A DNA stretch of 51,251 bases, taken from assembly GCA_964546425.1 (NCBI GenBank), contig CAZJJW010000001.1, positions 1-51,251 of the forward strand, given 5' to 3'. Every line of letters begins with the position of its first letter. The stretch's first letter is position 1. The notes beneath the pieces were generated by a model that was given only the letters and a program-made list of their open reading frames with translations, searched no databases and was not told where the DNA came from. This DNA comes from an uncultured Candidatus Saccharibacteria bacterium. GTDB taxonomy: Bacteria > Patescibacteriota > Minisyncoccia > Phycocordibacterales > JACOZG01. The position numbers and the translations under genes are program-made. Below, piece by piece: positions 4,497 through 22,501 of the stretch.

Positions 4497-5029
4497 TGGC
4501 AATCATCAAACACAAAGGCCAGCGGATTGCGGTCTTTATTGATACGCAAAATCTCTATCACTGCGCCAAAAATTTATATCAAGCCCGGGTCAACTTCGCC
4601 GCGATTCTTAAAGACGCGGTCGGGGATCGGACCTTAGTCCGAGCGATCGCTTATATGGTCACGACCGAATCCGGCGAGGAGAAAAACTTTGTCGAAGCGT
4701 TGAAAAAGATGGGGATTGAGGTCAAAACCAAAGACCTCCAGATCTTTTCCGGCGGCGCCAAGAAGGCGGATTGGGATGTCGGCCTGGCCGTTGACGCGAT
4801 TAAAGTCGCTTCCAAGGTAGACTCGGTAGTGCTAGTTTCCGGTGACGGCGATTTCGTGCCATTGGTAGAATATCTTAAAGTCAGCGCCGGCGACCAGGTG
4901 GAAGTTATCTCGTTCGGCAAAAGTACTTCCGCCAAACTTAAAGAAATCGCCGACGACTTCATTGATCTGGGAGAAAACCCGCGCAAATATCTGCTCGGCC
5001 GGCGAAGCGCCAAAGTGGTAAAGGGATAG
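4496..5029 (+). CDS. NYN-domain (LabA/DUF88-like) putative ribonuclease
   Basis: IAVFIDTQNLYH..., DWDVGLAVDAI..., VVLVSGDGDFVPLVEYL are typical NYN/LabA blocks. Confidence 0.7.
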   Translation: MAIIKHKGQRIAVFIDTQNLYHCAKNLYQARVNFAAILKDAVGDRTLVRAIAYMVTTESGEEKNFVEALKKMGIEVKTKDLQIFSGGAKKADWDVGLAVDAIKVASKVDSVVLVSGDGDFVPLVEYLKVSAGDQVEVISFGKSTSAKLKEIADDFIDLGENPRKYLLGRRSAKVVKG

Positions 5030-5061
5030 AACAATCTCGGTAACTCTATTATAATAGAGTC

Positions 5062-5574
5062 ATGCCTGATGACTTAAACGATAAACTTCAAGAGGCGAAA
5101 CTCGCGATGGAGGGACCCGAGTGGACCGCCAAGCGCGAGACCGAAACCAAAACCAAAACCCTCAAAGACGAACAAACCACGTTCGAAACTCGTCTGGCGG
5201 TGGTCAACAAACAAAAAGAGGAGCTGGAATTGGCCTGGGTTGATTTAGATAATAAACGCAAAGCGATTCGCGTGGTTTTAAATCCATTGCTTGACGCAGA
5301 AAAAAAGGTTGAGGCCGAAGAAAACACTTTAGAAACCGAGGAAGCGAAGATTGGTTTGGCGGCCGACAAACATCTGGTGGAAGAAAAACGTTGGGCCGCC
5401 CAAGCTAAACGTAAAGAGCTTGAGGGCCAGCGCTGGCAAGAAGAAGAAAAGTTGGCCAAATTAGAAAAGCTGATCGAAACTCACACTTTGAAATACCGCG
5501 CCTTGTTAGATGAAGAAGATAAAATTCGGGCCCGGCTCGACCAACTTAGGGTTGAGCTGGCGACCGCCCAGTAA
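5062..5574 (+). CDS. Hypothetical coiled-coil protein (Glu/Lys/Ala-rich)
   Basis: Long ORF with heptad-like charged composition. No recognisable catalytic motif. Confidence 0.5.
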   Translation: MPDDLNDKLQEAKLAMEGPEWTAKRETETKTKTLKDEQTTFETRLAVVNKQKEELELAWVDLDNKRKAIRVVLNPLLDAEKKVEAEENTLETEEAKIGLAADKHLVEEKRWAAQAKRKELEGQRWQEEEKLAKLEKLIETHTLKYRALLDEEDKIRARLDQLRVELATAQ

Positions 5575-5575
5575 T

Positions 5576-6781
5576 ATGGCCCTCCCGCCCGACGATTTAC
5601 AAGCGAAACGGGAAGCCGCCGCGCGCGCCATGGAAGGCGACGCGCGGCAAGCGAAACGAGCCGAAGAAAACGCAAAACTCGCCACGCGCCGGAGTGAAGC
5701 GGCGCGCGCGATGGAGAACGAAGAACAACGTCATCACCGCGAAAGCCGCGAGGAGCTGGCGCGCCGTCAGGCGGCCGCCGTCCAAGCCAAGCTTGACGCC
5801 GAAACCAAACAAGTCGAAGCCGAGCGCGCCGCCCAGAAAGCGACCCTCGAGGCGGCCGCCAGGCGCGAACAAGCCGCGTTTCAGGCCAAGCAAAAGAGAG
5901 TGGGAACGATTGAGCGGGCGGGCCGAATCATTGAGACTTTAAAAAGTGGGGATTTGAAATTAACCTCCCTGCGGACCTATAAAGGCGACATGGCTCGGGC
6001 CGTTCGGGAGGAGGGGATCTCGGTTTCCAAAATCGCGATGGCCGGCCAAGGCCGCCGCGGCGCCCGGGGCGAGGTCGCGCTTGCCCGCCGGTCAAACCTC
6101 GGTTGGTTGGTTTTCCTTTTACTGCTGGTCGGCGGCGGCGCGGCGGGTTATTACTATTATTATCTCTGGCCGAACCAAACCACTCCGAGGCCGGCGACGA
6201 TCGCCGCCCCCAGTCCAATCATTTTTTCTGAAGCTAGGGCGCCGCTTGATCTCACCAGCTTAAGCGGCACCGAGGCGATCCAGCAACAGATTAATACCGA
6301 GGCGACGCGCGCGGGTTTAAGCGGCGGCGCGATAAAAAACATTTATTTCACTCGCGGCGGCCAAATTTTACCCTTCAGCGCCTTCCGTCAGGCGGCCGGA
6401 CTCAATTTGCCAGCTGATTTATCGCGGACGGTGGAAGAAGAATTTATGTTTGGAATTTATAATAACAGTGTCGCCAACAACCGCTTTCTCATTATCGAAC
6501 CCAAACTGTCGGAACTGGCTTTTGGCGCCATGCTTGATTGGGAACCAAAATTGCTTGATGATATTTTTCCGCTCTTAAGCGGGGGCCCGCCCCAGAGCAA
6601 TGCCCGCGGCCAAATTTTCATTGATCGCCTGGTGCACAATAAGGACGCCCGATTGCTTAAAAATAAGGCGGGCGAAACAATTCTCTTCTATGCTTTCCTT
6701 GATCCCCACCACCTAATCATCAGCCGCAACGAAGAAACTTTCTTAGAAGTTCTAAAACGCTTCACGGCTGGAGAAAATTAA
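5576..6781 (+). CDS. Hypothetical membrane-anchored protein (charged coiled-coil N-region, one TM, C-terminal globular domain)
   Basis: ORF 5510..6781 trimmed to the ATG at 5576, directly after the previous stop. TM segment LGWLVFLLLLVGGGAAGYYYYYLW. Confidence 0.5.
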   Translation: MALPPDDLQAKREAAARAMEGDARQAKRAEENAKLATRRSEAARAMENEEQRHHRESREELARRQAAAVQAKLDAETKQVEAERAAQKATLEAAARREQAAFQAKQKRVGTIERAGRIIETLKSGDLKLTSLRTYKGDMARAVREEGISVSKIAMAGQGRRGARGEVALARRSNLGWLVFLLLLVGGGAAGYYYYYLWPNQTTPRPATIAAPSPIIFSEARAPLDLTSLSGTEAIQQQINTEATRAGLSGGAIKNIYFTRGGQILPFSAFRQAAGLNLPADLSRTVEEEFMFGIYNNSVANNRFLIIEPKLSELAFGAMLDWEPKLLDDIFPLLSGGPPQSNARGQIFIDRLVHNKDARLLKNKAGETILFYAFLDPHHLIISRNEETFLEVLKRFTAGEN

Positions 6782-6805
6782 TCAACAATATGTTAAAGTG
6801 AAACA

Positions 6806-7129
6806 ATGAATCTAGACACCAACCATTTTAAGAAAAAGCTGGAGCGCGAGAAAGCCGAGTTAGACCAAGACCTGGCGCAAATTGAATCGGTTAAAGAAGC
6901 GGAGACGGAATTTCGCGACGAGGTGGCTGATCAATTGGAAGATCTGGATGAACGTCAAGCGCTGCAAATGACGCTCACAGCTCGATTGAAAGAGGTGGAG
7001 CGCGCGCTCGAGAAAATCACCGCGGGCCAGTACGGTATTTGCGAAGTGGGCGGTGAACCGATCGAGCCAGAGCGGCTTGGGGCCGATCCGGCGGCTCGAA
7101 CCTGTAAACGCCATCTCAATGTGGGCTAA
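6806..7129 (+). CDS. DksA/TraR-family protein with degenerate zinc finger
   Basis: Coiled-coil N-region and C-terminal GQYGICEVGGEPIEPERLGADPAARTCKRH, which is the DksA/TraR layout with only 2 of the usual 4 Cys. Confidence 0.55.
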   Translation: MNLDTNHFKKKLEREKAELDQDLAQIESVKEAETEFRDEVADQLEDLDERQALQMTLTARLKEVERALEKITAGQYGICEVGGEPIEPERLGADPAARTCKRHLNVG

Positions 7130-8681
7130 AGTCCACTCCGCCCAAATTGTCGGCCTCAAGGCCGATCTGGTGGAGGTGGAAATTGATATTGGCAAAGGCC
7201 TTCATTCTTTTGGTGTCGTGGGACTACCAGATAAGGCGGTCGAGGAAGCCAAGGACCGGATCAGCGCCGCCATTAAAAATTCCGGCTTCAAATCCCCGCA
7301 AAAAAGCAACAAAAAGGTGATTGTCTCGCTGGCGCCGGCCGATTTGAAGAAAGAGGGGCCGGTGTTTGATTTGGCGATCGCGCTCGCTTATCTCTTGGCC
7401 AGTGGCGAGATCAAATTTAAACCGGCCGGAAAACTTTTTCTTGGCGAACTGGCGCTCGACGGCACGCTCCGGCCAATCAAGGGCGCCCTGATGATCGCCC
7501 GCAAAGCCAAAACCGCCGGTTTCCAAGAATTATATTTGCCCACGTTAAATGCCGAGGAAGCGGCGCTAATCCAAGGAGTGGCTGTCTATGGCTGTCGCTC
7601 GCTTAAAGAACTGACAAATCATCTTTCGCCGCCGGTGACGGAAGAAGGCCAGTTTCAGCCACTGATTATCCTCAAGCCGCAACCGGCCACCGAGATTGTG
7701 AGCGAGCGCGGCAACTTCGATATTGACTTGGCCGATGTCAAAGGCCAGCAAACCGCCAAACGCGGGCTTGAAATCGCGGCCGCCGGTGGTCACAATATCG
7801 CGATGTCCGGCCCGCCCGGCACCGGCAAAACAATGTTAGCCAAGGCCTTCGGCGGCATTCTGCCGCCGCTTGACTTCGAGGCCGTGCTCGAAGCGACCGG
7901 CATCCACTCCGCCGCCGGCTTGCTCGAGCACATCATTATCACCGCGCCGCCCTTCCGCGCGCCGCATCACACTTCATCTTATGTCTCGCTGGTCGGCGGC
8001 GGCAATTGGCCGAAGCCCGGCGAGATTACGTTGGCGCACCGGGGCGTACTTTTTCTCGACGAATTCCCGGAGTTCGACAAGCGGGTGATTGAGTCCTTGC
8101 GCCAGCCGCTTGAGGACCGGACCATCAACATCGCTCGAGCAAAAGGATCGATGACCTTCCCGGCCAATTTCATTTTAATCGCGGCGATGAATCCGTGCCC
8201 TTGCGGCAACAAAGGTCTGCGCAGTCGCGAGTGCATTTGCTCCCAAGTGGCCCTAATGCGTTATCAACGTAAATTATCCGGGCCGATTGTCGATCGGATT
8301 GATTTGTGGCTCGAAGTCGCCCAAGTGGATCATGAGAAATTGTCGGCCGCTTATGGCGGCGAAGAGAGCTCGGCCACGGTCAGAGAGCGCGTCCTGGCCG
8401 CCAGGGCCAAGCAACACGCGCGCTTCGCCGCTCGAACCGGTAAACATCAGATCACCACCAACAGCGAAATGGGCGCCAAGGACCTGCGCCGCTTCGCGCC
8501 GCTTAGTCCCAGCGCCACCAAACTTTTAAACGATTCGGCCAAACGGCTTGACTTATCCGCCCGGGCCTACCACCGCGTCATCAAACTTGCCCGCACCATC
8601 GCCGACCTCGCCCAGGCCGACAACATTGCCGAGGATCACCTCCTTGAAGCCCTCCAATACCGCCCCAAGGTCTCGTTTTAA
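7119..8681 (+). CDS. comM: YifB/ComM-family Mg-chelatase-like AAA+ ATPase
   Basis: ORF 7053..8681 trimmed to the ATG at 7119 (MWAKVHSAQIVG...). Walker A SGPPGTGKTM, Walker B VLFLDEFPEF, Cys cluster CPCGN...C.C. Confidence 0.8.
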   Translation: MWAKVHSAQIVGLKADLVEVEIDIGKGLHSFGVVGLPDKAVEEAKDRISAAIKNSGFKSPQKSNKKVIVSLAPADLKKEGPVFDLAIALAYLLASGEIKFKPAGKLFLGELALDGTLRPIKGALMIARKAKTAGFQELYLPTLNAEEAALIQGVAVYGCRSLKELTNHLSPPVTEEGQFQPLIILKPQPATEIVSERGNFDIDLADVKGQQTAKRGLEIAAAGGHNIAMSGPPGTGKTMLAKAFGGILPPLDFEAVLEATGIHSAAGLLEHIIITAPPFRAPHHTSSYVSLVGGGNWPKPGEITLAHRGVLFLDEFPEFDKRVIESLRQPLEDRTINIARAKGSMTFPANFILIAAMNPCPCGNKGLRSRECICSQVALMRYQRKLSGPIVDRIDLWLEVAQVDHEKLSAAYGGEESSATVRERVLAARAKQHARFAARTGKHQITTNSEMGAKDLRRFAPLSPSATKLLNDSAKRLDLSARAYHRVIKLARTIADLAQADNIAEDHLLEALQYRPKVSF

Positions 8682-9112
8682 GACTTCAGAACAAATTTCT
8701 TAATCATCATCGCCAGATATTGTTGAAACAGGGGGAATTGCTTTTTGATCTTAGTAATCAGCACTACCGGTTTTAACTTTTCATATTCATGGACCACTTG
8801 ATTACGCAATTTAGCCGATTCCGAAATTTGGTCCACAAAATCGCGCTCGAGAATCTTCGCTTCGGCCAAGCCGTAGAAGGTCGAACGGTAACTTTCGGGG
8901 CTCTCAATCGGACTGTCCGACAAAATAAGCGTATTGATATCAACCGCTTCGTCTACCACCAGCTGGAATAACCGCTCAATCGTTCTAATTATCATCTGAT
9001 CGGCCAAAATCTTCTCGTTCGCCAGCACTAAAAGCGGCTCTAACTCGTCAAGATAAGCCCGTAGCCGGTCGGTTTTGCGTTTAATTTCGTCAGTTTGCAT
9101 AAACCCGTTCAT
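8678..9112 (-). CDS. hepT: HepT-like HEPN (DUF86) toxin
   Basis: RNQVVHEY matches the Rx4HxY HEPN motif. Start taken at ATG 9112 (or 9100), overlapping the end of the upstream NTase gene. Confidence 0.7.
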   Translation of the reverse strand: MNGFMQTDEIKRKTDRLRAYLDELEPLLVLANEKILADQMIIRTIERLFQLVVDEAVDINTLILSDSPIESPESYRSTFYGLAEAKILERDFVDQISESAKLRNQVVHEYEKLKPVVLITKIKKQFPLFQQYLAMMIKKFVLKS

Positions 9113-9500
9113 GTTTACGAGCCCAATTAATAAGCTTCTGGTCACGACGGTCGCGCAACCACCTAGTCTCCATCCAAATTTTCGTGGCATACACTTTCCA
9201 ACGGCTAAAGCTTCCCACCGGATTTTCGTATAGTAGCTTACCGTCGCGAACGATCGCATGAGAGAGTGTTGGTGAGGCTGTGGCCAGGTCAACTACCTCG
9301 ACATTTGGCCTTTTAAAAACAGCGGACAAATCCATCATGAGTCGATAGAGATCAAAACTCTGTTGGCTAATTACACCAACATCAACATCGCTTTTCGCAT
9401 GAGTCTTGCCGGTCGCTTGTGAACCATAAAGCACGACAAAATCAAGCCCATACTTCTCGGCCAGAACGGCCACTTTGGGTTTAATGACTTCTAATTCCAT
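9090..9500 (-). CDS. mntA: MNT-type nucleotidyltransferase antitoxin
   Basis: YGSQATGKTHAKSDVDVGV is the minimal NTase G-S...D-x-D motif. Overlaps the HEPN gene. Confidence 0.7.
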   Translation of the reverse strand: MELEVIKPKVAVLAEKYGLDFVVLYGSQATGKTHAKSDVDVGVISQQSFDLYRLMMDLSAVFKRPNVEVVDLATASPTLSHAIVRDGKLLYENPVGSFSRWKVYATKIWMETRWLRDRRDQKLINWARKHERVYAN

Positions 9501-9643
9501 CTCTCTACTCTACCAAAAATCAAACCTTTCTCCAATACCGCCCCAAGGTCTAGCTTTAATCTATCGTTTTCTTAAAAGCTGTATTACAATAAGACGAGGT
9601 GGAAGAAATTTTTTCTTTACTTAGGTCTTTTTGGAGGCAAATT

Positions 9644-9892
9644 ATGGAACGAGAGGAATTGGAAAAACTTCTGGCGCATGTCCCGTCGTTAATCCAGAAG
9701 CTTGAGGCCCTGAACGCGGAGGTAAACCAGATTTGCGACGACACGCGCAGCGCCCGGTCGGAACCGGCAACCCGAGAAATCCTGGCGGTGGTCGGGCCAT
9801 TGCAAGTTTACACCTTGCAAAGTATGGCGAAACTGAAACAAGCTAAAAAAGACCTCGAGGTCGCTCTCAAACCATTTGAAGTCCTCGCCTAA
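9644..9892 (+). CDS. Hypothetical small helical protein
   Basis: ORF 9599..9892 trimmed to ATG 9644, which is preceded by GGAGG (9633-9637). No recognisable family. Confidence 0.4.
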   Translation: MEREELEKLLAHVPSLIQKLEALNAEVNQICDDTRSARSEPATREILAVVGPLQVYTLQSMAKLKQAKKDLEVALKPFEVLA

Positions 9893-9900
9893 CCAAACAA

Positions 9901-9926
9901 ATGCCACACCTAGTTAGGTGTGGCAT
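9901..9926. terminator. Bidirectional hairpin between convergent genes
   Basis: ATGCCACACCT-AGTT-AGGTGTGGCAT, an 11-bp perfect stem followed by TATTT. Sits between 9644..9892(+) and 9953..10897(-). Confidence 0.6.
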
Positions 9927-9952
9927 TATTTGGGAAAATCTAGATCAAAAAT

Positions 9953-10897
9953 TTAAAACGGGTTTTTCGCCCCTCTGACCTCAAAGTGGACGTGCGGCCC
10001 GGTCGAACGGCCGGTGGAACCGATGGCGCCGATGACTTGACCCTGTTCGACGCCCTGCCCCACCACCACCTCGTTACTGGTATTATGAGCATAGAGCGTT
10101 TGTGTACCGTTGGGGTGGGCGACGACAATGTAATTGCCGTAGCCGCCATTCCAGCCGCCGGTTTTGCTAATAATCACCTGGCCGCCGGCGGCCGCCACGA
10201 TCGGCGCACCGAGCTTGCCCGCCAAATCAACTCCGTTATAACCATGGAGGCCTTGGGTTTTTACGCCACCGGCAATTGGTCTCTGATAATAACCAACGAA
10301 GCTCGGCCCACGACTGCCGCGAACCGGATTCTTTGGTGCGGGCCTTTTGGTCGCCACCGCCGCCTCCTCACCGTCGGGGATCATGATGATGTCACCCACC
10401 GCCAGGGTTTGGTCAGACTCTAGATCATTAAATTGGATGATTTCTTGAGCGTCACCCTTGTACTTAGTCGCAATACTCTCGATGGTCTCGCCCCGAGCCA
10501 CGGTGTGGCGCAGGCCGGTGATTGGCAGGATGACCAAGGTGTCTCCTTCTTTAATCGCCTGACCGCGGCTCAAATTGTTGGCCCAAAGAATGGTGTTAAC
10601 CGAGACATCAAACATTTGGGCGATGCCCCCGAGCGTATCGTCCGGCCGGACGACATAGATGCTAATCTGGTCGCCGGCCGACGTATCATCGAGATCGGCC
10701 GTGGTGCCGAGCGGACCGGCGTCAGCCAAGAGCGCGCTGCCGCCCACGATCGTGATGTCAGCCCCGCCAACCGCCGGCGTCCCGCTCGCCCCGACTGGGG
10801 CCGCCTCGAGACCGACGGTTTGGGAATTAGAACCAAAAACACCCGCCGTAGCCGGCGGGACAGCATAAAAATGGCTAAGCAAAGCCAAAGTAACCAA
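9953..10897 (-). CDS. Secreted LysM-LysM-M23 peptidoglycan metallopeptidase
   Basis: Two LysM-like repeats (YVVRPDDTLGGIAQMF...; HTVARGETIESIATKY...). M23 motifs GVDLAG..., YAHN, GSTGRSTGPHVHFEV. The tracked start is TTG, so the true start is uncertain. Confidence 0.85.
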   Translation of the reverse strand: MVTLALLSHFYAVPPATAGVFGSNSQTVGLEAAPVGASGTPAVGGADITIVGGSALLADAGPLGTTADLDDTSAGDQISIYVVRPDDTLGGIAQMFDVSVNTILWANNLSRGQAIKEGDTLVILPITGLRHTVARGETIESIATKYKGDAQEIIQFNDLESDQTLAVGDIIMIPDGEEAAVATKRPAPKNPVRGSRGPSFVGYYQRPIAGGVKTQGLHGYNGVDLAGKLGAPIVAAAGGQVIISKTGGWNGGYGNYIVVAHPNGTQTLYAHNTSNEVVVGQGVEQGQVIGAIGSTGRSTGPHVHFEVRGAKNPF

Positions 10898-11066
10898 AAG
10901 CGCACTAAAAACTTTAAAATGAGTAAAAATAAGGCTAAAATTAGGGTTGCCAATCGGTCTTACGGTAAAATAGCTTTAATTTAAGCCATTTGTCTGACGA
11001 ACGGTCATTACAGCCACTCTCTAATTATAGCCGAGGTCGAGGCGAATTTCAACCGTTGGGAGGATA

Positions 11067-11086
11067 AACTGTGGATATGTTACAAT
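11067..11086 (+). promoter_or_regulatory. Extended DnaA-box-like 11-mer abutting an extended -10 promoter (TGTTACAAT)
   Basis: AACTGTGGATA at 11067-11077, TGT at 11078-11080, TACAAT at 11081-11086. The ATG of the helicase gene is at 11093, implying a leaderless or very short leader. Confidence 0.5.
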
Positions 11087-11092
11087 CGCCAA

Positions 11093-13045
11093 ATGGAAGC
11101 ACTTAGGGGCTTAAACTCCGATCAACAAGTGGCCGCGGAGCATCGCGCCGGCCCACTGCTCATTGTGGCCGGCGCCGGCGCCGGCAAAACCAAGACGATT
11201 GTCGCCCGGATCTTAAGATTAATTGAAACTGGAATCGCGCCCGAGCAAATTTTGGCCATCACCTTCACCAATAAGGCGGCCGGCGAGATGCGGGAGCGGG
11301 TCCGAACGGCTTTGACCTCCGAAACTTCTTTAAGGTTCGACCTTGGGAATCCTGAATCTAAAGGTCGAACCTTGTCGGAGGTCGGGCCGCTGCCGTTTGT
11401 CAGCACTTTCCATGCCCTGGGTGTTTATTTGCTCCGCGCCGAAAGTCAAGCCACCGGTCTCGGCAAATACTTCAGCATTTTTGATAAAGAAGATTCGCTT
11501 CGGGTGGTCAAAGAGGTAATGAAAACCGGCGGCTTGGACCCAAAACAAATCGAGCCGCGCAAGATTCTGGGCCGAATCTCGCGGGCCAAGGGCAATGGCG
11601 TTAATTGGACCCAATTTCAAAATTCTAATAACGAAAGTTATTTCGATAAACTAGTGATACCGGTCTGGCGCGCCTATGAAATCGAACTTAGGGCGCGCCG
11701 GACGCTTGACTTCGATGACTTACTTTTGAAAACCGCGGAATTACTCGAGGCCAACCCGCTCATTCTTAAACGTTATCAAGATCGCTGGCGCTATATTCAC
11801 ATTGACGAATACCAAGATACCAATGAAATCCAATACCGCCTAGCGCGACTGCTAGCGGTGGCCCATCAAAACATTTGTGTCGTCGGTGATGTTGACCAGT
11901 CTATCTACAGCTGGCGGGGAGCCGACTGCCGCAATATTTTGCGCTTCGAGGAAGATTATCCGAAGGCAAAAGTCGTGCTGCTAGAGCAAAATTATCGTTC
12001 AACCAAAAATATCTTGGAAGCGGCTAATGTGATTATTAAAAAGAATTTTGAGCGCCAAGAGAAAAATTTATTTACCAATAATCCGGCCGGCGACCCAATC
12101 AAGCTCTGGGTTGGTCTCGACGAGAAGGCGGAAGCGGCGCTGGTGGCCGAAGAAGGGGCGCAGTTAATCGAATCTGGCGTCAAACCGGAAGATATCGCCG
12201 TACTCTACCGGACCAATTTCCAATCTCGGGCGATTGAAGAAGCCATGCTCGCCCGCGGTTTGCCTTACCAGGTGCTCGGGACGCGCTTCTTCGAGCGCCA
12301 GGAGGTCAAAGATGTCTTGGCTTATCTCAAGGCGGCTCTTAATCCAGAAGATATCGAGAGCGCCAAGCGGATTATTAATCTGCCGCCCCGGGGCGTGGGC
12401 AAAGGAACGCTCGTCAAACTCTATTCCGGCCAGGCGGCCAGTCTACCGGCCAAAATGCGCGAGAAAATCAGCGAATTCCAAAAGTTGCTCGGCGCCATTC
12501 GCGAGCGGGCCGAGGCCGAACCGCCGTCGTCAGTCCTTAAATTTATTATTCAAGCGGCGGGGCTGGAAAAATTGTACCAAGACGGCACCGAGGAGGGCGC
12601 GGAGCGGCTGGCGAACATTAAGGAACTGGTGACGCTGGCCCTAAGATATGACGTCGAGCCGGCGGGCGAAGCCGTTCACAAGTTAATCACCGACGCGGCC
12701 TTGGCTTCCGACCAGGACACACTCAAAGAGCGCGGCGGCGGGATTAAACTAATGACCGTTCATACCGCCAAAGGCCTCGAATTCCGTTATGTTTTCATTA
12801 CCGGCCTGGAACAAAATCTCTTCCCGAGCGGTCACCTTGATGAGGACGGCGACCGCGATCATGAAGAAGAGCGACGACTCTTCTACGTCGCCCTCACCCG
12901 GGCCAAAGAACGACTTTACTTAACTTACGCCCAAGTCCGGACCATCTTCGGCTCGCGCCAATTCACTTTGCCATCCGAATTCCTGACCGACATCCCGCCG
13001 CACCTCGTCGAGAGCCGAGACTTCTTGATTGATATTGGATTTTAA
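11093..13045 (+). CDS. UvrD/PcrA-family ATP-dependent DNA helicase
   Basis: Walker A AGAGAGKTKT, motif II HIDEYQDTN, VVGDVDQSIYSWRGA, LEQNYRS, VHTAKGLEF, YVALTRAK. Confidence 0.9.
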   Translation: MEALRGLNSDQQVAAEHRAGPLLIVAGAGAGKTKTIVARILRLIETGIAPEQILAITFTNKAAGEMRERVRTALTSETSLRFDLGNPESKGRTLSEVGPLPFVSTFHALGVYLLRAESQATGLGKYFSIFDKEDSLRVVKEVMKTGGLDPKQIEPRKILGRISRAKGNGVNWTQFQNSNNESYFDKLVIPVWRAYEIELRARRTLDFDDLLLKTAELLEANPLILKRYQDRWRYIHIDEYQDTNEIQYRLARLLAVAHQNICVVGDVDQSIYSWRGADCRNILRFEEDYPKAKVVLLEQNYRSTKNILEAANVIIKKNFERQEKNLFTNNPAGDPIKLWVGLDEKAEAALVAEEGAQLIESGVKPEDIAVLYRTNFQSRAIEEAMLARGLPYQVLGTRFFERQEVKDVLAYLKAALNPEDIESAKRIINLPPRGVGKGTLVKLYSGQAASLPAKMREKISEFQKLLGAIRERAEAEPPSSVLKFIIQAAGLEKLYQDGTEEGAERLANIKELVTLALRYDVEPAGEAVHKLITDAALASDQDTLKERGGGIKLMTVHTAKGLEFRYVFITGLEQNLFPSGHLDEDGDRDHEEERRLFYVALTRAKERLYLTYAQVRTIFGSRQFTLPSEFLTDIPPHLVESRDFLIDIGF

Positions 13046-13095
13046 ATTTTTGACACAAATTTTATGTTGAGTAAGATTAGTTTAAATTATGCCCA

Positions 13096-13410
13096 TTGAA
13101 ACATATGTCGTTATGGTTTTGTCCGCCATTATGTTTGGCGCTTGTTTGTTCCCATTACATTTACCGTTTTCTTCTTGTCCTTTCTGGTATTTGGGACGAT
13201 CAAGATTACTTTGGCGACGTTAGAAAGAAAGTTGACTGGCTTTCTAAAATTAACGAGCTGGCTCTCTATAACTACATGATCTCGTTTATCTATTCGCTAA
13301 TTACCGGAAATTGGTTAGTCTTTTTGGTTGTCTTTATCACCACCAGTTCCTACGACCTGGTGAAATATAGTTTCCACCAACTGGGCTATTACAAAAATGT
13401 CTCGCCATAA
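13096..13410 (+). CDS. Hypothetical small membrane protein
   Basis: AT-rich ORF with hydrophobic segments. TTG at 13096 or ATG at 13105. The stop is immediately followed by a REP-B hairpin. Confidence 0.3.
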   Translation: MKHMSLWFCPPLCLALVCSHYIYRFLLVLSGIWDDQDYFGDVRKKVDWLSKINELALYNYMISFIYSLITGNWLVFLVVFITTSSYDLVKYSFHQLGYYKNVSP

Positions 13411-13437
13411 CCACTTGGAGGCTAAGCCTCCAAGTGG
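13411..13437. repeat. REP hairpin, family B (CCACTTGGAGGC-TAA-GCCTCCAAGTGG)
   Basis: Perfect 12-bp stem with 3-nt loop, 12 nt upstream of the RAYT-2 start. Confidence 0.8.
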
Positions 13438-13449
13438 TAGACTGATGCC

Positions 13450-14109
13450 ATGCGTAAAGTTGAGTTCGCTAACAACGAGTTTTACCATCTCTACAATCGT
13501 GGCGTTGATAAGAGAAATATCTTCGGCGAAAAGAAAGATGTTGACCGTTTTCTGCAAAGTCTCAAAGAATTCAACACCATTGAACCGATCGGCAGTATTT
13601 TTGAGCAATCGTTTTCCAAAACCATCTCTCAATCAGAAAAGAAGCTGGTAGAATTCGTGTGCTACGCGCTAAACCACAACCACTACCATCTTTTGGTCAG
13701 ACAAGTTTCCGACCAGGGAATCGAGAAGTTTATGCATCGTCTCTCGACTGGCTACACCAGATATTTCAATGACAGAAACCAGAGAACGGGGTCTTTGTTT
13801 CAAGGCCCCTACCAAGCTCGTTATGTTGACTCCAACGAATACCTCCTGCACCTAAGCGTTTACATCAACCTAAATGACATCGCCCATGGCGTAAACCAAC
13901 TTGGAGGCTTAGCCTCCAAGTTGGGAAGAACTAGTTGGGGGGAATTTACCTTACCGACAACAAGACCGGCTTTATGTCAGAAGGATATTATTTTAGGCCA
14001 GTTTGGAAACATTCAAGAATATAAGGACTTTGCCAAAGAGGCACTGGTTGGTATCCAAGAACAGAAATTATTAGCCAAGGAGCTCGAGGGTTTAGAACTT
14101 GGAGGCTAA
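13450..14109 (+). CDS. REP-associated tyrosine transposase-like protein, copy 2
   Basis: HUH motif NHYHLLV; Y region SVYINLND. Paralog of 3543..4247. Bracketed by and containing family B REP hairpins. Confidence 0.7.
   Translation: MRKVEFANNEFYHLYNRGVDKRNIFGEKKDVDRFLQSLKEFNTIEPIGSIFEQSFSKTISQSEKKLVEFVCYALNHNHYHLLVRQVSDQGIEKFMHRLSTGYTRYFNDRNQRTGSLFQGPYQARYVDSNEYLLHLSVYINLNDIAHGVNQLGGLASKLGRTSWGEFTLPTTRPALCQKDIILGQFGNIQEYKDFAKEALVGIQEQKLLAKELEGLELGG
13896..13924. repeat. REP hairpin, family B, inverted orientation (loop TTA), inside RAYT-2 ORF
   Basis: CCAACTTGGAGGC-TTA-GCCTCCAAGTTGG, a 13-bp perfect stem. Encodes ...NQLGGLASKLG... Confidence 0.8.
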
Positions 14110-14119
14110 GCCTCCAAGT
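14097..14119. repeat. REP hairpin, family B; loop TAA is the RAYT-2 stop codon
   Basis: ACTTGGAGGC-TAA-GCCTCCAAGT, a 10-bp perfect stem. TAA at 14107-14109 ends ORF 13450..14109. Confidence 0.8.
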
Positions 14120-14124
14120 AGAAT

Positions 14125-14904
14125 ATGCGGGCGAAAAAATCATTGGGGCAGCATTGGTTGCGGTCGGGGAGCGCCCGGCAGGCGATAATTGAGGCCGCGG
14201 GGCTAAGCGACCCCACTTCGCCAAGGCTTCGCGGGGCGACCACTACTGTGGTCGAGATCGGGCCCGGAGAAGGATTCTTGACCGAAACGTTGTTAGAAAC
14301 CGGCGTCAAAGTGGTCGCGGTTGAAAAAGATGATCGGTTGATTGAAGTTTTACAAGCAAAATTTAAAAAAGAAATTCTAGATGGCCAACTAGAATTGAGG
14401 CACGTGGATATTTTGGACTTCGACTATAACCTACTCCCCAAAACCTATTCCCTCGTCGCCAACATTCCTTACTACATCACCGGCGCGGTGATCAAAAAAT
14501 TTTTAACATCAGAAAATCAACCCCAAGCGATGACGCTTCTGGTTCAAAAAGAGGTCGCGGAGAGAATCGCGCGCGAGAAAAAAGAATCTCTTTTATCAAT
14601 CTCGGTCAAAGTTTATGGCCAGCCGAAATATATTAAGACTGTTCCCGCCGGCGCCTTCGCGCCGGCGCCCAAAGTTGATTCAGCAATTCTCTCAATCACC
14701 AATATTTCACGCCAGAATTTTGAAAATGTCAGTGAAGAAAAATTTTTCGCTATTTTAAAGCGCGGTTTTGCCCACAAACGCAAATTACTCAAAAGCAATC
14801 TCAGCTGTTCGGCGGAAGTCTTGGCGAATTGTCATATCAACGAGCAAGCGCGCGCCGAAAATTTAACTTTAGACCAATGGCTTTGTCTTTGCAAAAACTG
14901 CTAA
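14125..14904 (+). CDS. rsmA: 16S rRNA (adenine1518/1519-N6)-dimethyltransferase
   Basis: KKSLGQHWL, SAM motif VVEIGPGEGFLT, ANIPYYITG. Extra segment SDPTSPRLRGATT before the SAM motif. Confidence 0.85.
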   Translation: MRAKKSLGQHWLRSGSARQAIIEAAGLSDPTSPRLRGATTTVVEIGPGEGFLTETLLETGVKVVAVEKDDRLIEVLQAKFKKEILDGQLELRHVDILDFDYNLLPKTYSLVANIPYYITGAVIKKFLTSENQPQAMTLLVQKEVAERIAREKKESLLSISVKVYGQPKYIKTVPAGAFAPAPKVDSAILSITNISRQNFENVSEEKFFAILKRGFAHKRKLLKSNLSCSAEVLANCHINEQARAENLTLDQWLCLCKNC

Positions 14905-15353
14905 TCACTCTGTTGGCCAGTCTCGCCGTGCTTGTTGGCTTACACCCAACGGAGGCGAAGCCTCCGCCGAGCGGAGGCTTCGCCTCCGTTGTGATTGGCG
15001 ACACCACCATTAAGCTTGAGCTCGCCCGGACGCCAGCCGAGCAAACCCAAGGTTTGTCAGACCGAACATCACTTGACGAGCGGGCCGGAATGCTTTTTGT
15101 CTTCCCGGCCGACCAAATTCCGGCCTTTTGGATGAAGGAGATGCGCTTCCCAATTGATATCATTTGGCTCAACGTCGACGGGCAAATTGTTGACATTACT
15201 CCCAACCTCGCCCCAAGCACTTTTCCGCAAACTTTTTCGCCAAAAATCCCAATTCGCTATGTCTTAGAGGTGAATGCCGGCTTCGCCGGCCGCCATGACC
15301 TGAAAATCGGCGATTTTATCCACTTTTCGGGTGTTCCGGGGCTACAAAATTAA
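14877..15353 (+). CDS. DUF192-family secreted protein
   Basis: ORF 14829..15353 trimmed to ATG 14877 (MALSLQKLLITLLASLAVLVGL signal/anchor). GMLFVFP...FWMKEMRFPIDIIWL...YVLEVNAG is the DUF192 pattern. Confidence 0.65.
   Translation: MALSLQKLLITLLASLAVLVGLHPTEAKPPPSGGFASVVIGDTTIKLELARTPAEQTQGLSDRTSLDERAGMLFVFPADQIPAFWMKEMRFPIDIIWLNVDGQIVDITPNLAPSTFPQTFSPKIPIRYVLEVNAGFAGRHDLKIGDFIHFSGVPGLQN
14948..14990. repeat. REPIN-like doublet of two inverted family A REPs, in frame inside the DUF192 gene
   Basis: AACGGAGGCGAAGCCTCCG-CCGA-GCGGAGGCTTCGCCTCCGTT. Two hairpins in opposite orientation form a larger near-palindrome. Translated as TEAKPPPSGGFASV. Confidence 0.8.
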
Positions 15354-15378
15354 CTCTCGGTGAAGTATAATAAAGGAG

Positions 15379-16125
15379 GTGAAAAAGCGGATTTTAATAA
15401 TTCTGGCTTTTGGTGTACTTGTTTTGTCGGCCGGTTTAGTAATTTTGTGGTGGATCGGCGGCAAAAGCTTGGAAAATAACACCAGCGACGTGGAGGCCAA
15501 CCGCGCCCAGTTGGTCCAAGCCACCAATGAATTGCTCGGCAGCCGCCCCGGAACCAGTACGGAGATTCTCCGCCAAGCGATTGAGAAGAAGGGCGACTTG
15601 CCAGTTATTATTCCTGACCTTCGCCAAGTGAAACCGGCTGGCGTCTACTACGAACTAGTGGACTTGCGCTTGGCCGACATTACCGAGCCCTCGGCCTTAC
15701 GTGAGTACGGTCTCCAAGTCGCGGCGGCGATGTCGCTTTATGCCAAGGCCGAAATCCACAACGAAATGGCCGAGGCGCTGGCGGCTTATCAAGCGAATCA
15801 GCCGCTTCAATTAACCGGCGTGACAAAGATGAAGAACTTGTACCTGCAAATCATTGAGCGGCTCGCAATCCAGACCGTGCCACAGAGCGCTGGCCCGGCT
15901 CACTTGGCGCTCATCAACTCGCTCGTCGGTCTGGCCGAGATCGATATCCATATGGAACAGATCTTCGACGAGCCGGTGGTTGGTCTGCAAGCGATTCAGC
16001 TCTATCCGGAACGCTACGGCGCCTTGCTCAAAGCGATGCTGGGGATTAATAAATACTTCACCGATCAGGGAATTAAGTTCTCGGCTACCGAACACACCGA
16101 CCTGCCTTACATTTTTGCTCAATGA
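15379..16125 (+). CDS. Hypothetical N-terminally anchored protein (first gene of T4SS-like operon)
   Basis: GTG start. TM segment ILIILAFGVLVLSAGLVILWWIGG. The stop overlaps the next start (ATGA). Confidence 0.5.
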   Translation: MKKRILIILAFGVLVLSAGLVILWWIGGKSLENNTSDVEANRAQLVQATNELLGSRPGTSTEILRQAIEKKGDLPVIIPDLRQVKPAGVYYELVDLRLADITEPSALREYGLQVAAAMSLYAKAEIHNEMAEALAAYQANQPLQLTGVTKMKNLYLQIIERLAIQTVPQSAGPAHLALINSLVGLAEIDIHMEQIFDEPVVGLQAIQLYPERYGALLKAMLGINKYFTDQGIKFSATEHTDLPYIFAQ

Positions 16126-19076: not shown

Positions 19077-21346
19077 AAGAGCTCATATATAAAATTATAC
19101 TAGTCTTAATAGTTGGAGCGCTGTTTCTTCCTCACGTGGTAAAAGCGCAAGATGGTTTTGACGTTGACCCCAGTACAAAGCGGGCGGAGATGATTGATGG
19201 CCTGATCCGTGACGCTAACCTAAGGGGCGCACCGGAAGGAGAACTGGCTTGGTTGCATGTACTGCGGGCAGGATATTTGACGGGGGTCTACGACTCGAAC
19301 GCCCCCTTTCCACCTCCTGCCGAGGATCAAACTGGAATACCAGAACAAATTAAGATCGAGCAAGAAATTCTAAAGCGTTGGACCGCCGACTACCGAGGAG
19401 CTTCTGATTACAATGTGGTTTTGAATGCGATCGGCATCAGGGATAACAATCTAAACAAACTTCTGGATCCTAACAGTAACGATCAGTCCAACGCCGACAG
19501 GGCCATTAGAGAGCAATTTGCAAATCAAACAAAACTCGACCCGTCTACCATCGAGTGCGGGGGCTGGCTCCTGCCTGGCGGCTGCGACATTCTCAAGGCC
19601 GGAATTATCTTCGTCAATAAATTTGTCGAACCGACAGTCAGAAATCTTCTTTTAGACGGCGCCAACTGGATCTTCAACAAGGTTGTCAACGAGTCGGTAA
19701 GAAACTTTAGCGATTATGGCAAAGCTAACGGGGTCCAACTCGCTTGGGCGATGTCTCGCGATATCGTGAATGTCGCTTTGATTTTCTTCCTCCTCTATAT
19801 CGCCATCGGCACTATTCTGGGTTTCTTCGAGGGCAAGCGGCTCTTGGTCGCCATTGTCATCGCCGCGCTGTTGGTCAATTTCAGCGCCTTCTTCACTAAT
19901 ATTCTGATCGACGCCAGCAACATCGCCGCCAACCAGTTCTATAATCTAGCCGGCGGTGGGGCCACTACCGCCTCGGGGGCGCCAGACATTGGCACCCGCT
20001 TAGTATCAGCCACCGCCATTGATGCCCGCGACTTCGCTCTAGCAACGGCCGGCGCTGACCCCATCTCTAAACTCTCGGCCATCTTTGTCCAAGATGTTGG
20101 CCATATCATTCTCTATGTCATCACCGCCGTGGTCCTATTTGCGGCCGTGGCAATGTTTTTTGTCCGGATGATTACGCTCATTATCTTAATCATTATTTCT
20201 CCCTTTGCTTTCCTTTTCTTCACTTTGCCAAAAACTAAGGGCTACGCCGACCAATGGTTAAAAAGTCTCCTCAACCAAATACTTTTTGCCCCGATCTTCC
20301 TTTTCTTTTTTGCCGTCACGATAACGATTGCGAGTCAGAACGGCTTTCAACAAATGCAGCGGGGGAATGGCTCCGAAGGTTATATTGGATTCTTCTCGAT
20401 GCTGATTTACGTCATCTTGATTAATGGGATGATGGTCGGCGCGCTCCTGATTGCTAAACAGTTTGGCGCCGCCGGCGCCGGCGCGGCGATGAAAGGCCTC
20501 AAATCATATGGACTAGGTGCGGCTGGTGGGGCGACGGTTGGTTTGGCTGGTCGTTTGGGCCGAACTAGTCTTGGTCGGGGAGCCAGCGCCTGGGCTGACT
20601 CAAAGAAACTGGAGGCCAGAGCGGCGCAGGGTGGAGCTAAGGGTTGGTTTGCCAGGCAACAACTTAGAACCTTGCGTGGCGTTGCCGGTGCCAGTTTTGA
20701 CGCTCGAGCCACCAAAGCCGGGCAGGCGGCGGGCCTCGGCACCCTGGGCAAGGCCGGCGGCAAAGGTGGCTATGGAGCTCAGTTGAAAGAACAAGTGAAG
20801 GAGCGAGAAGAATTTACTAAGGGTTGGAGCGAGGAGAATAAAGCACAATACGCCGAGAACTTAGCTAAACGCCCAGGCATTCTCCGCGGCCGATTTGGCG
20901 GTCAAGCGCCACGGAAAAACCGAATAGCCGCTGAAAACATCAGCCAGGCAAAAGAACGAGCCGCGATCAACCTTCACAACGAGAGAATTGACCGAGAGAT
21001 CGAGCAACAAAAAGTGGTTTTGGACTTCGAAACCAAAAAACAGGAAACTTCTCGTTACAAAGCCGAGGTGCAGGTCGCCGAGCAGGCTCTGGCAACCGCG
21101 ACCGTTAGCGGCAACCCGGAGCTGGTGGCCAAATATACCAATGCCCTAACTGACGCCAGAACCAAAATGAACAACGCCAATCGAGAGTACGACGCGGTTC
21201 AAGCAGAGATTAAAAAGACAGAGGAGAAGAAGCGCACCTTCAAGAAAAGAGAGAAAAGTGTTGGGGAACAAGTCGCGGAGGCGCTGCAAAAAACTCAAGG
21301 AGGTGGTCGAGGAAGCCCGCCGACGCCACCGCCAGCCACACCATAA
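19073..21346 (+). CDS. Polytopic membrane protein, VirB6/TrbL-like, with Gly/Ala-rich and coiled-coil C-terminal tail
   Basis: GTG start overlapping the previous stop (GTGA). Signal/anchor, then at least 5 hydrophobic helices (e.g. VNVALIFFLLYIAIGTILGFF, LLVAIVIAALLVNFSAFFTNILI). Tail AGAGAAMKGLKSYGLGAAGG... then a charged coiled coil and PPTPPPATP. Confidence 0.5.
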   Translation: MKELIYKIILVLIVGALFLPHVVKAQDGFDVDPSTKRAEMIDGLIRDANLRGAPEGELAWLHVLRAGYLTGVYDSNAPFPPPAEDQTGIPEQIKIEQEILKRWTADYRGASDYNVVLNAIGIRDNNLNKLLDPNSNDQSNADRAIREQFANQTKLDPSTIECGGWLLPGGCDILKAGIIFVNKFVEPTVRNLLLDGANWIFNKVVNESVRNFSDYGKANGVQLAWAMSRDIVNVALIFFLLYIAIGTILGFFEGKRLLVAIVIAALLVNFSAFFTNILIDASNIAANQFYNLAGGGATTASGAPDIGTRLVSATAIDARDFALATAGADPISKLSAIFVQDVGHIILYVITAVVLFAAVAMFFVRMITLIILIIISPFAFLFFTLPKTKGYADQWLKSLLNQILFAPIFLFFFAVTITIASQNGFQQMQRGNGSEGYIGFFSMLIYVILINGMMVGALLIAKQFGAAGAGAAMKGLKSYGLGAAGGATVGLAGRLGRTSLGRGASAWADSKKLEARAAQGGAKGWFARQQLRTLRGVAGASFDARATKAGQAAGLGTLGKAGGKGGYGAQLKEQVKEREEFTKGWSEENKAQYAENLAKRPGILRGRFGGQAPRKNRIAAENISQAKERAAINLHNERIDREIEQQKVVLDFETKKQETSRYKAEVQVAEQALATATVSGNPELVAKYTNALTDARTKMNNANREYDAVQAEIKKTEEKKRTFKKREKSVGEQVAEALQKTQGGGRGSPPTPPPATP

Positions 21347-21355
21347 AATAAAACC

Positions 21356-22069
21356 ATGGACGATCAAAATCAACAAATAAGAGACCTCGTTGCCGACTTG
21401 CCGGCGGCACTCCAAACGGCGGCGCGCGACCGGTCGTGGGAAAACGATCTGCGCGCGATTGCCAACAAACACGGCTTCACACCGGAACAAGTTTCGATTT
21501 GGATTGACGAAACCTTATTGGTCTTAATGGGGGCGCTCACCCGGATTGATTACGCCAAAAATCTCGCCCTGACACTTGGTTTACCAAATGAGACTTGCGC
21601 CGCGCTCGCGCGTGAGGTGGAGGAAAAAATATTTCAGCCACTGGATAAACCATTACAATTACTCCAACAAAATAAAACCAGGGATGAACGCTTTGAGAAG
21701 TTGCCACCGAATATTCAGCAAGCGATCTCGTCGGCCGATAATGAGCGGGCGATTCAAGAAATTGGCAAGAAATATGCCTTACACATTGATCAGCTTGGAT
21801 TGCTCGATGATGAAGTGAATTTGGTGCTGCTTGGCGACACGCCGTCTAATCAATTTGTGGAAAAAATAAAGAACGTCTTGCGGATTGACGGGGCCCAGGC
21901 CCAAGCGGTCGGGCAAGAAGTCAGCGAGCGCATCTTCATGCCGCTCCGCGATTCGCTCCGAGCTTTAAGCGAGCCTCCAACGTCAAGCATCGTCGAACAA
22001 AAGTTGGGTGGCACATTTAGTCTCCCGGTCGAAAAGAAAATTGATCCTTACCACGAACCGATAGATTAA
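21356..22069 (+). CDS. Hypothetical protein with internal two-fold repeat
   Basis: Two similar modules: ...IANKHGFTPEQVSIWIDETLLVLMG...AREVEEKIFQPL and ...IGKKYALHIDQLGLLDDEVNLVLLG...GQEVSERIFMPL. Confidence 0.5.
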   Translation: MDDQNQQIRDLVADLPAALQTAARDRSWENDLRAIANKHGFTPEQVSIWIDETLLVLMGALTRIDYAKNLALTLGLPNETCAALAREVEEKIFQPLDKPLQLLQQNKTRDERFEKLPPNIQQAISSADNERAIQEIGKKYALHIDQLGLLDDEVNLVLLGDTPSNQFVEKIKNVLRIDGAQAQAVGQEVSERIFMPLRDSLRALSEPPTSSIVEQKLGGTFSLPVEKKIDPYHEPID

Positions 22070-22070
22070 C

Positions 22071-22490
22071 ATGGCAAATTTCCAGGTGCCACAATTTATT
22101 GAGATCGAGGATCGGATTTTCGGACCGCTGACCTTCAAGCAGTTCGTCTACTTGGCCGGCGGCGGGGGCGCGGCCTTCATCGAGTGGGTTTATATTCCCG
22201 TCCACTTCATCGCCATAATGTTCATCGCGCCAACCGTCGGCTTGGCTTTGGCGCTGGCCTTCTACAAAATTAATGACCGACCCTTTATTTTGATGATGGA
22301 GTCGGCCTTCCACTATCTGCTCGACCACAAATTGTACATTTGGAAAAAGGTCGAGCCCAAACTTCGCCAAGACGCCGCGGGGCAGATTACCAAGATCACG
22401 CAAGAGCGGGGAATTGCGATTCCTAAATTATCGGAGAGCAAATTGAAAGATTTGTCCTGGAGCTTGGATGTCAGGGAGAAGATCAAATAA
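22071..22490 (+). CDS. PrgI-family (VirB3-like) T4SS membrane protein
   Basis: N-terminus MANFQVPQFIEIEDRIFGPLTFKQFVYLAGGGGAAF followed by two TM helices. This matches the PrgI-family layout normally found upstream of VirB4. Confidence 0.6.
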   Translation: MANFQVPQFIEIEDRIFGPLTFKQFVYLAGGGGAAFIEWVYIPVHFIAIMFIAPTVGLALALAFYKINDRPFILMMESAFHYLLDHKLYIWKKVEPKLRQDAAGQITKITQERGIAIPKLSESKLKDLSWSLDVREKIK

Positions 22491-22501
22491 ATTTGATCTT
22501 C

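Follow-up and report, generated by a model that had tools for sequence, protein, structure and literature searches.

Two Y1 HUH transposase-like genes and their perfect hairpins as probable REPtron-like units in a Parcubacteria genome

The stretch of DNA analysed here (contig CAZJJW010000001.1, positions 1 to 51,251; hereafter the window) carries at 13410-14119 a Y1 HUH transposase-like gene, B, with one perfect hairpin in front of it, one inside it and one across its stop codon; a paralog, A, lies at 3543-4247 with hairpins of its own. We conclude that the B locus is probably one of two units in this Parcubacteria genome that resemble REPtrons, in which the gene for a Y1 HUH enzyme-like protein is accompanied by a cognate perfect hairpin at fixed places. 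This reading draws on features that we observed directly: the anatomy of the locus, the conservation of the hairpin sites, their concerted variation, their dispersal in related genomes, the copies that lie in frame within proteins, and the fold of the protein. The initial annotation had described B as the second of two genes for REP-associated tyrosine transposases (RAYTs), each surrounded by its own family of repetitive extragenic palindromes (REPs). Our analysis partly supports that idea, which is largely right but incomplete. The two genes, their hairpins and the two doublets described below are given on the forward strand.

The three B hairpins share the core ACTTGGAGGC-TAA/TTA-GCCTCCAAGT. 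The upstream one, ACCACTTGGAGGC-TAA-GCCTCCAAGTGGT at 13410-13438, has a 13-bp perfect stem (-15.5 kcal/mol, z = -8.0), and its last base lies 11 nt 5' of the ATG at 13450; it is thus slightly longer than first annotated (13411-13437, with a 12-bp stem 12 nt from the ATG). The internal hairpin, CCAACTTGGAGGC-TTA-GCCTCCAAGTTGG at 13896-13924, also has a 13-bp stem and is read in frame as NQLGGLASKLG just past the helix of the catalytic Tyr, at what we call the C site. Its loop is TTA, inverted relative to the flanking TAA copies, because TAA in this frame would be a stop codon. The downstream hairpin, ACTTGGAGGC-TAA-GCCTCCAAGT at 14097-14119, has a 10-bp stem, and its loop TAA (14107-14109) is the stop codon of the open reading frame (ORF) 13450-14109; the usual C-terminus ...LLE-stop has here run on into the hairpin (...GLELGG-stop). 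The pattern TTGGAGGCTWAGCCTCCAA matched three times in the window, against 0.00 expected from 100 shuffles, and folding of the three as single-stranded DNA gave -10.8 to -15.5 kcal/mol (z = -5.8 to -8.0). Apart from the coordinates of the first hairpin, the description given in the initial annotation (three perfect hairpins with TAA/TTA loops, the second inverted and in frame, the third supplying the stop codon) was accurate. The B ORF encodes 219 aa with a Pfam Y1_Tnp match (1.7e-7), an HUH motif (H78-Y-H80) encoded at 13681-13689 and a catalytic Tyr138 at 13861-13863. The same protein is encoded on JACOZI010000003.1 (GCA_016181425.1, a metagenome-assembled Parcubacteria genome) and on four Logan contigs from related runs, which are identical to one another throughout the B locus.

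The A ORF (3543-4247, GTG start, 234 aa, Y1_Tnp 5.4e-8) is laid out in a similar way. Its upstream hairpin, GCGGAGGC-TTC-GCCTCCGC at 3502-3520, lies 22 nt before the start. Its internal hairpin, GCGGAGGC-GAA-GCCTCCGC at 3712-3730, lies in frame (RGGEASA) after the N-terminal block and before the HUH strand, a position that we call the N site. The third copy, again GCGGAGGC-GAA-GCCTCCGC, at 4212-4230, is read as AEAKPP in the C-terminal tail. A carries PNHFHLL and YIHLNPVK, the more usual forms of these motifs. As had been noted, the two proteins share EFYHLYNRG, the HUH motif and TGSLF; they are 45% identical over 146 aa, the first 146 residues.

Both proteins exceed the 23-bit cut-off of Pfam Y1_Tnp (PF01797), B with 31.8 bits and A with 33.4, and the HUH motif and catalytic Tyr are invariant in both subfamily alignments (H78-Y-H80 and Y138 in 21 B sequences; H82-F-H84 and Y142 in A). 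The best PDB match to an AF2 model of B (predicted local distance difference test score, pLDDT, 82) found with Foldseek was E. coli TnpA-REP with its REP hairpin (4ER8, E = 9e-5), followed at about 1e-3 by 2A6M, 2VJV and 2XM3, the TnpA proteins of IS608 and ISDra2. A sequence-profile search of the PDB with the protein returned nothing, and the link to TnpA-REP thus comes solely from the comparison of folds. The two sites at which B-type genes carry in-frame hairpins coincide with the segments that are modelled least confidently (residues 51-60, pLDDT < 50; residues 151-160, pLDDT about 60), and both are probably surface loops in the predicted structure.

The layout of the B gene recurs across its family. 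The B protein has 2282 homologs (E <= 0.001), mostly from Parcubacteria, the nearest in the database being about 60% identical; the best 120 of the 2282 are 53-62% identical, and all of these with a named source come from Parcubacteria or Patescibacteria. At the DNA level we assembled 96 non-redundant B-type genes, 80 of them metagenome-search loci and the others homolog-bearing loci from a pattern scan and look-ups, and scanned them for perfect stems of at least 7 bp with loops of 3 or 5 nt. Hairpins occupied four positions: an upstream site at -35 to -57 from the start codon (78/92, 85%), the N site at about +165 to +195 (56/96, 58%), the C site at about +440 to +470 (50/96, 52%, counting hairpins from +410 to +520), and a downstream site from over the stop to 45 nt after it (69/91, 76%). 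The background in the same loci was 0.037 hairpins per 100 nt. The stop codon lies inside a hairpin loop in 4 of 72 homologs, and in 50 of the 72 a hairpin comes no more than 10 nt after the stop; the stop-in-loop arrangement of the window is a rare form of a general rule that a hairpin follows the stop. An alignment of 21 B proteins shows the peptide QLGGxASKL after the catalytic-Tyr motif Y(V/I)NLN and a second copy of it before the HUH strand. The hairpin positions are therefore an architecture conserved across the gene family rather than incidental insertions. A belongs to a second large Patescibacteria subfamily, with 6429 homologs. In the A-type genes compared at the DNA level, hairpins likewise stand upstream (-32 to -60), often at about +160, and at, over or just after the 3' end or stop; the N site (+155 to +169) is occupied in the genes of loci L149, L204 and L208. 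The A-type hairpins have gene-specific sequences with feet other than ACTTGG, and the hairpin-encoded peptide is not conserved in the A protein alignment.

These counts bear on one alternative, that the hairpins are generic genome palindromes, arising through restriction avoidance, base composition or assembly artefact, and lie near both genes by coincidence. The inner stem GGAGGC is indeed common to families A and B in the window and is also the commonest type over the genomes (17/96), which speaks for it. Yet all eight GGAGGC-N3-GCCTCC sites in the 51 kb, where none is expected, lie at the two genes (three each) or in a single doublet within a DUF192 gene; more than 35 different sequences fill the four positions in about a hundred homologs; and the B locus came out identical in four independent assemblies. 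Coincidence or artefact is excluded.

The hairpins of one gene vary together. In B-type genes the outer foot ACTTGG/CCAAGT (sometimes ACTTAG) is nearly invariant, while the loop and the four inner stem pairs are gene-specific, with 35 or more types of inner stem. Of 268 pairs of sites in the same gene, 220 (82%) had identical inner stems, compared with 6.1% between genes. The two in-frame peptides co-vary per protein in the 21-sequence alignment (LSGSTTKL with LSGSTTKL, LGNPVSKL with LGNPVSKL, LGSSAS with LGSSAS), and some copies differ only in that one has the loop codon and the other the reverse complement of that codon (E/F or K/L). The peptides vary as the palindrome dictates (for example LGGEAS, LSGSTT and LGNPVS); the constraint is therefore on the nucleic acid and not on the protein. 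Close gene pairs (76-95% nucleotide identity) had the same 6-nt inner stem in eight of nine cases, the L044/L181 pair sharing 5 of 6 positions, and changes of the loop hit all copies together, as in L106 (TTT/AAA) and L182 (CTT/AAG). Inner stem and loop thus evolve in concert. A conserved foot beside an inner part that changes in concert suggests recognition or recombination at the foot, and copying or conversion of the inner part from site to site.

Within a gene the loop is almost always one triplet or its reverse complement, with near-random orientation between sites; for the loops TTA and TCA inside the ORF, the orientation kept is the one that avoids a stop codon. We also considered a strand-specific hairpin: if 5-nt loops are taken as 3-nt loops closed by a G·T pair, a function at the RNA level would predict that the wobble is always on the sense strand. 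We rejected this, as both orientations occur. As a separate observation, the upstream and downstream hairpins of L136, ACTTAGAAAC...GTTTCTAAGT, have a nested palindrome, GGGGTT-TCGA-AACCCC, in place of the 3-nt loop of its close relative L137; from its sequence this looks like an insertion into the loop.

Hairpins also occur away from the two genes. In the window an inverted A-type doublet (GAA, then TTC) at 14947-14991 forms a 21-bp REPIN-like hairpin (-30.3 kcal/mol, z = -11.5) in frame in the DUF192 gene, where it is read as TEAKPPPSGGFASV. The doublet lies about 830 nt downstream of the B gene, nearer to B than to A. The earlier claim that each gene has nothing but its own variant around it consequently holds in and next to each gene, but not for this neighbourhood. 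A probable decayed doublet at 14195-14236, inside ksgA (14125-14904), adds a peptide of about 13 aa (SDPTSPRLRGATT), and in L208 a perfect A-type hairpin, GGCGGAGGC-TTA-GCCTCCGCC (19384-19404), stands at the same site of the syntenic ksgA. Incidentally, four Logan contigs all terminate at window position 14236/7, inside this extra ksgA segment. The same contig could be followed for about 9.5 kb beyond the window, bringing the total scanned in this genome to about 60 kb. About 3.8 kb past the right end of the window, an A-type hairpin, GGCGGAGGC-GAA-GCCTCCGCC (16765-16789 of L209), is in frame in a holA-like gene (DNA polymerase III delta) and is read as FILAEAKPPPETL. Family A accordingly has three dispersed copies at two loci in about 60 kb, in addition to the decayed copy in ksgA.

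In related genomes the gene's hairpin is the dispersed one. A scan of species-representative genomes with the pattern CTTGGAGGCNNNGCCTCCAAG (CTTGGAGGC-N3-GCCTCCAAG) gave at least 114 stretches, mostly from Patescibacteria; none of the 114 listed was from this genome (JACOZI01). The matches listed comprise 135 hairpins, 23 of them in or beside a homolog gene and the rest scattered. Among them, contigs of one genome share a loop or its complement (GAG/CTC in MHRY01, CCG/CGG in JACRFL01, TAA/TTA in MFLV01 and JBBTTA01), and the dispersed hairpin is that of the gene, with a genome-specific loop. In the flanks (3 kb or more) of 62 homolog gene regions, further copies of the hairpin of that gene occurred at 0.42 per 10 kb, whereas a gene region of about 1 kb (gene ± 200 nt) holds about 2.6 copies. 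In Patescibacteria, 32 of 82 dispersed copies (39%) are in frame, deep within open frames of at least 200 aa, 16 in the frame LGGxASK, 15 in LEAxPPS and one in the third frame. The word extragenic in the term REP accordingly does not fit these elements. Nine dispersed copies have a second hairpin no more than 70 nt away (seven doublets at seven loci), and all nine are inverted, like the DUF192 doublet.

A and B represent ancient subfamilies and did not arise by a recent duplication. The A gene lies in the conserved order xerC, A, rpsO. Comparing window positions 2500-15400 with L208 (ERZ27249449 k141_554242), we found a shared order of xerC, A-type gene, rpsO and NYN, and further on uvrD, ksgA and DUF192, with no B-type gene in the syntenic uvrD/ksgA interval. 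The A hairpin of L208 has the same stem as that of the window (GCGGAGGC) with the loop TTA/TAA. We looked for a clean empty site for the B gene in L208 and rejected it: at 65-75% nucleotide identity the sequences are too diverged for insertion boundaries to be defined. Another set of A-type genes retains a recA-ftsK ... L10/L12 neighbourhood. On L149, an unrelated contig, an A-type and a B-type gene lie about 3 kb from one another and have separate hairpin families (ACTTGGGGGT-TTC/GAA at the B-type gene, CGAAGGT-TTA at the A-type gene), which gives independent support to the earlier proposal of two co-diversified pairs. That proposal is further borne out by the identity of gene hairpin and dispersed hairpin in related genomes, though not by family B within this genome, where in about 60 kb it was found only at its own gene. 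As an aside, A-type and B-type genes lie 3-10 kb apart in four independent loci (the window, L149, L151 and L153), which suggests a proximity beyond chance placement in a genome of roughly 1 Mb.

In most pairs of related loci, homology stops at the flanking hairpins, and usually only one flank is lost. The hairpins are thus rearrangement junctions, and the loss of usually one flank argues against simple transposition of the whole unit. This matters for a second alternative, which we judge improbable: that the 710 bp from hairpin to hairpin (13410-14119) are an autonomous IS200-like insertion sequence, with the flanking hairpins as its ends and the internal one incidental. Size and layout resemble IS200, the hairpins stand directly at the gene ends where homology of related loci stops, the B gene is absent from the L208 uvrD/ksgA interval, and the neighbourhoods of B-type genes differ. 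However, a second copy was not found in about 60 kb, the sole relative there being A at 45% identity, and homologs from many genomes are 45-62% identical (53-62% in the protein search, 45-58% by tblastn), unlike the near-identity of an active insertion sequence. Most related pairs lose homology on one flank rather than both. The same hairpin is dispersed without the gene, conserved in-frame hairpins are no feature of IS200, and the A gene has kept its synteny.

The upstream hairpin appears to be part of the promoter. A predicted extended -10 box, TGgTAGACT at 13435-13443, takes its TG from the 3' foot of the B hairpin and ends 6 nt before the ATG; at the A gene, TGgTAAACT at 3528-3536 likewise ends 6 nt before the GTG start. 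Among B-type homologs, 64 of 79 have TGnTAnnnT directly 3' of the upstream hairpin (the foot ...AAGTG followed by nTAnnnT), and these boxes end mostly 6-7 nt before the start codon. The 5' foot TTG of the hairpin stands 17 nt from the -10 hexamer. The arrangement suggests that the upstream hairpin fills the -35/spacer region, and the mRNA would be leaderless because the -10 box ends 6 nt before the ATG. At the other end of the gene, a terminator scan of the window called none at the hairpins, and no T-run follows any hairpin.

Such a placement invites a third explanation, that the protein is a domesticated regulator. The palindromes would be double-stranded operators or RNA structures acting in transcript ending, mRNA stability or translation control; there would be no ongoing cleavage or mobility, and their spread would be historical. 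Perfect palindromes fit a dimeric binder of duplex DNA, and the nearly random orientation of the central 3 nt is what would be expected if symmetry alone mattered. One copy overlaps the promoter, one adjoins the stop, and two are within the mRNA. Against this, neither subfamily shows any variation in the catalytic HUH and Tyr residues, the fold is like that of enzymes that bind single-stranded hairpins, and concerted change at three to four sites together with dispersed copies requires copying or conversion. Moreover, the in-frame copies in the DUF192 gene, the holA-like gene and ksgA have no obvious regulatory logic, and the lack of a T-run after the hairpins also counts against it. We consider this explanation unlikely, if less so than that of an insertion sequence.

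For the REPtron-like reading, we infer binding, cleavage and copying of the hairpin by the protein, together with autoregulation and a leaderless start. Going by the chemistry established for its family, the protein would bind the hairpin extruded from single-stranded DNA, recognising a subfamily-specific foot (CACTTGG/CCAAGTG for the B type, other feet for the A type), and would cleave and rejoin it through its HUH/Tyr site. This activity could seed copies elsewhere, singly or as inverted doublets, between genes or within protein loops that tolerate an in-frame insert. The same activity, or else short-patch conversion or template switching between nearby copies, would keep inner stem and loop identical per gene and genome, while these drift between genomes; template switching within a perfect palindrome could also cause the loop flips. 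The upstream copy would give the TG of the extended -10 box, and binding there would lead to autorepression. At the stop, the hairpin may serve to terminate the transcript or to stabilise it. A bolder version seems doubtful to us, with a slightly better chance than the domesticated regulator. It would make the in-gene hairpins the core of a self-referential system in which the gene keeps the master store of the hairpin for the genome: the enzyme would read the conserved foot alone, swap or copy the inner stem-loop, homogenise the copies, write short peptide inserts into the host proteins of a minimal genome and set its own expression through the promoter copy. If so, the system would be a REP replicator passed on by inheritance, with its template contained in the gene that encodes the replicase itself.

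Several observations weigh against the REPtron-like reading and its proposed mechanism. Both proteins fall far short of the curated RAYT model (NF047646, REP_Tyr_transpos), B scoring 23.6 bits and A 37.6 bits against a cut-off of 80. RAYTs have a specific motif next to the catalytic Tyr, NP(L/V)(R/K)xG (Nunvar 2010, PMC2817692). It is absent from B, which reads YINLNDIAHG without NP, and partial in A (YIHLNPVKLI, without the G). The identification as RAYTs thus stands in so far as B is a second Y1/HUH paralog whose closest fold is 4ER8, but fails at the level of model score and, for B, motif. None of the hairpins has an unpaired 5' GT(A/G)G head; where GTGG or GTAG is present, it is always the 3' end of the foot and is paired (CCAAGTGG, CCAAGTAG), mirrored by CCAC on the 5' side. 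Within the roughly 60 kb scanned in this genome, family B was confined to its own gene, and copy density is low, extrapolating to tens per genome compared with hundreds for classical REPs. A few genes (L017, L058, L115 and L135) have mixed hairpin families. The orientation of the flanking copies is not fixed: upstream and downstream hairpins are direct in 32 and inverted in only 20 of 52 genes, and in the window those of B are direct (TAA/TAA) and those of A inverted (TTC/GAA), so that we rejected a fixed inverted orientation. A simple consensus promoter scan of the window did not call the proposed A and B promoters; promoter and leaderless start are suggested by the conservation of the motif. 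Finally, among 73 distinct upstream hairpins, 10 of 12 stem pairs had changed on both sides and 93.5% of cells paired, compared with 30-44% when the partner column was slid, but the set had been preselected as perfect hairpins, so that pairing is partly built in and these statistics are inflated. The informative evidence is site occupancy and within-gene identity rather than the pairing statistics.

Other features of the window touch the two units less directly. Relative to JACOZI010000003.1 (L001), the window has indel differences at about 4487-4950 and about 22500-23700, the latter a repeat-associated length difference near 22.5-23.7 kb. The rpsO gene (4272-4496) and the NYN-domain gene (4496-5029) are separate ORFs in the window and one fused 255-aa product in the NCBI record. 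Downstream of the B locus, at about 19100-24300, lies a conjugation or type IV secretion-like cluster (TrbL, PrgI, TraC-like and TraG-like P-loop). A LOOT RNA (Rfam RF03000) matches at 37670-37784 with 81.7 bits, against a gathering score of 46.4; Rfam has no family covering the A or B hairpins. Two long perfect hairpins, AATGCCACACCT-AGTT-AGGTGTGGCATT at 9900-9927 and ACGGCGCCGTCCA-CAATT-TGGACGGCGCCGT at 41122-41152, are unrelated to families A and B.

The significance of the locus lies in its host and in its variation. REP/RAYT systems are textbook examples of long-lived, vertically inherited bacterial replicators and are known mainly from Proteobacteria with large genomes, while Parcubacteria genomes are among the smallest and most streamlined known. 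The host here is a tiny groundwater bacterium, and a related system is apparently near-universal in Parcubacteria, with many copies in frame in housekeeping proteins, a feature that is not in the REP/RAYT papers with which we compared it. Because three to four copies per gene change together over more than 35 types, the family is a natural experiment on the co-evolution of an HUH enzyme and its target, and it could supply a set of orthogonal enzyme/hairpin pairs for single-strand DNA tools. For annotation, such genes are labelled 'transposase' in thousands of metagenome-assembled genomes, and their hairpins break assemblies.

Of the known systems, the closest is the REPtron, a RAYT/TnpA-REP gene flanked by REP hairpins (Nunvar 2010, PMC2817692; Bertels & Rainey 2011, PMC3116915; Messing 2012, structure 4ER8, PMC3479197). 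The units described here share with it a Y1 HUH/Tyr protein with 4ER8 as its best fold match, short GC-rich hairpins that bracket the gene (for B, 11 nt before the start and over the stop), the dispersal of the same hairpins as seen for family A and in related genomes, the co-diversification of protein and hairpin, several pairs per genome with inverted REPIN-like doublets, and, for the A gene, apparent vertical inheritance. They differ in that the hosts are Patescibacteria with genomes of roughly 1 Mb rather than Proteobacteria, that A and B score far below the curated RAYT model and B lacks NP(L/V)(R/K)xG, and that the hairpins are perfectly palindromic, have a loop of 3 nt and lack an unpaired GTAG head. 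Classical RAYT genes have inverted flanking REPs, whereas here the orientation of the flanking copies varies. Copy number is low, and 39% of dispersed copies are in frame in ORFs instead of extragenic. Furthermore, one or two hairpins lie in the reading frame of the transposase itself at conserved positions, and one overlaps the promoter.

The TnpA proteins of the IS200/IS605 group (IS200, IS608, ISDra2) have the same fold and catalytic motifs, and their elements, like the B locus, have subterminal hairpins on both sides of a unit of roughly 0.7 kb. IS200 hairpins also control expression. The end hairpins of IS200/IS605 elements are generally imperfect, in contrast to those at the A and B genes, which are perfect. 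Unlike those elements, the units here do not occur as multiple near-identical copies (the window has one other copy, 45% identical), the hairpin is dispersed without the gene, and the protein has about 70 more residues and a helical C-terminal domain.

Intragenic REPs and Rickettsia palindromic elements lie in frame in protein genes, including those for replication and repair, to which they add short peptides (Di Nocera 2013, PMC3733652). The hairpins here are likewise palindromic repeats in frame in coding genes, but the units are much shorter (about 23-35 nt), they are read in two specific frames (LGGxASK or LEAxPPS), they account for about 39% of dispersed copies, and they also occur within the gene of the presumed mobilising enzyme. 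A search of the literature on REP, RAYT or IS200 in Patescibacteria or the candidate phyla radiation (CPR), which was not exhaustive, found nothing relevant. Intragenic REPs and REPtrons are known from other phyla, and the system is therefore no new category. What is new compared with those REP/RAYT descriptions is the host clade, the perfect palindromes that lack a GTAG head, the combination of few copies with a high in-frame fraction, and the conserved copies in the system's own ORF and on its promoter.

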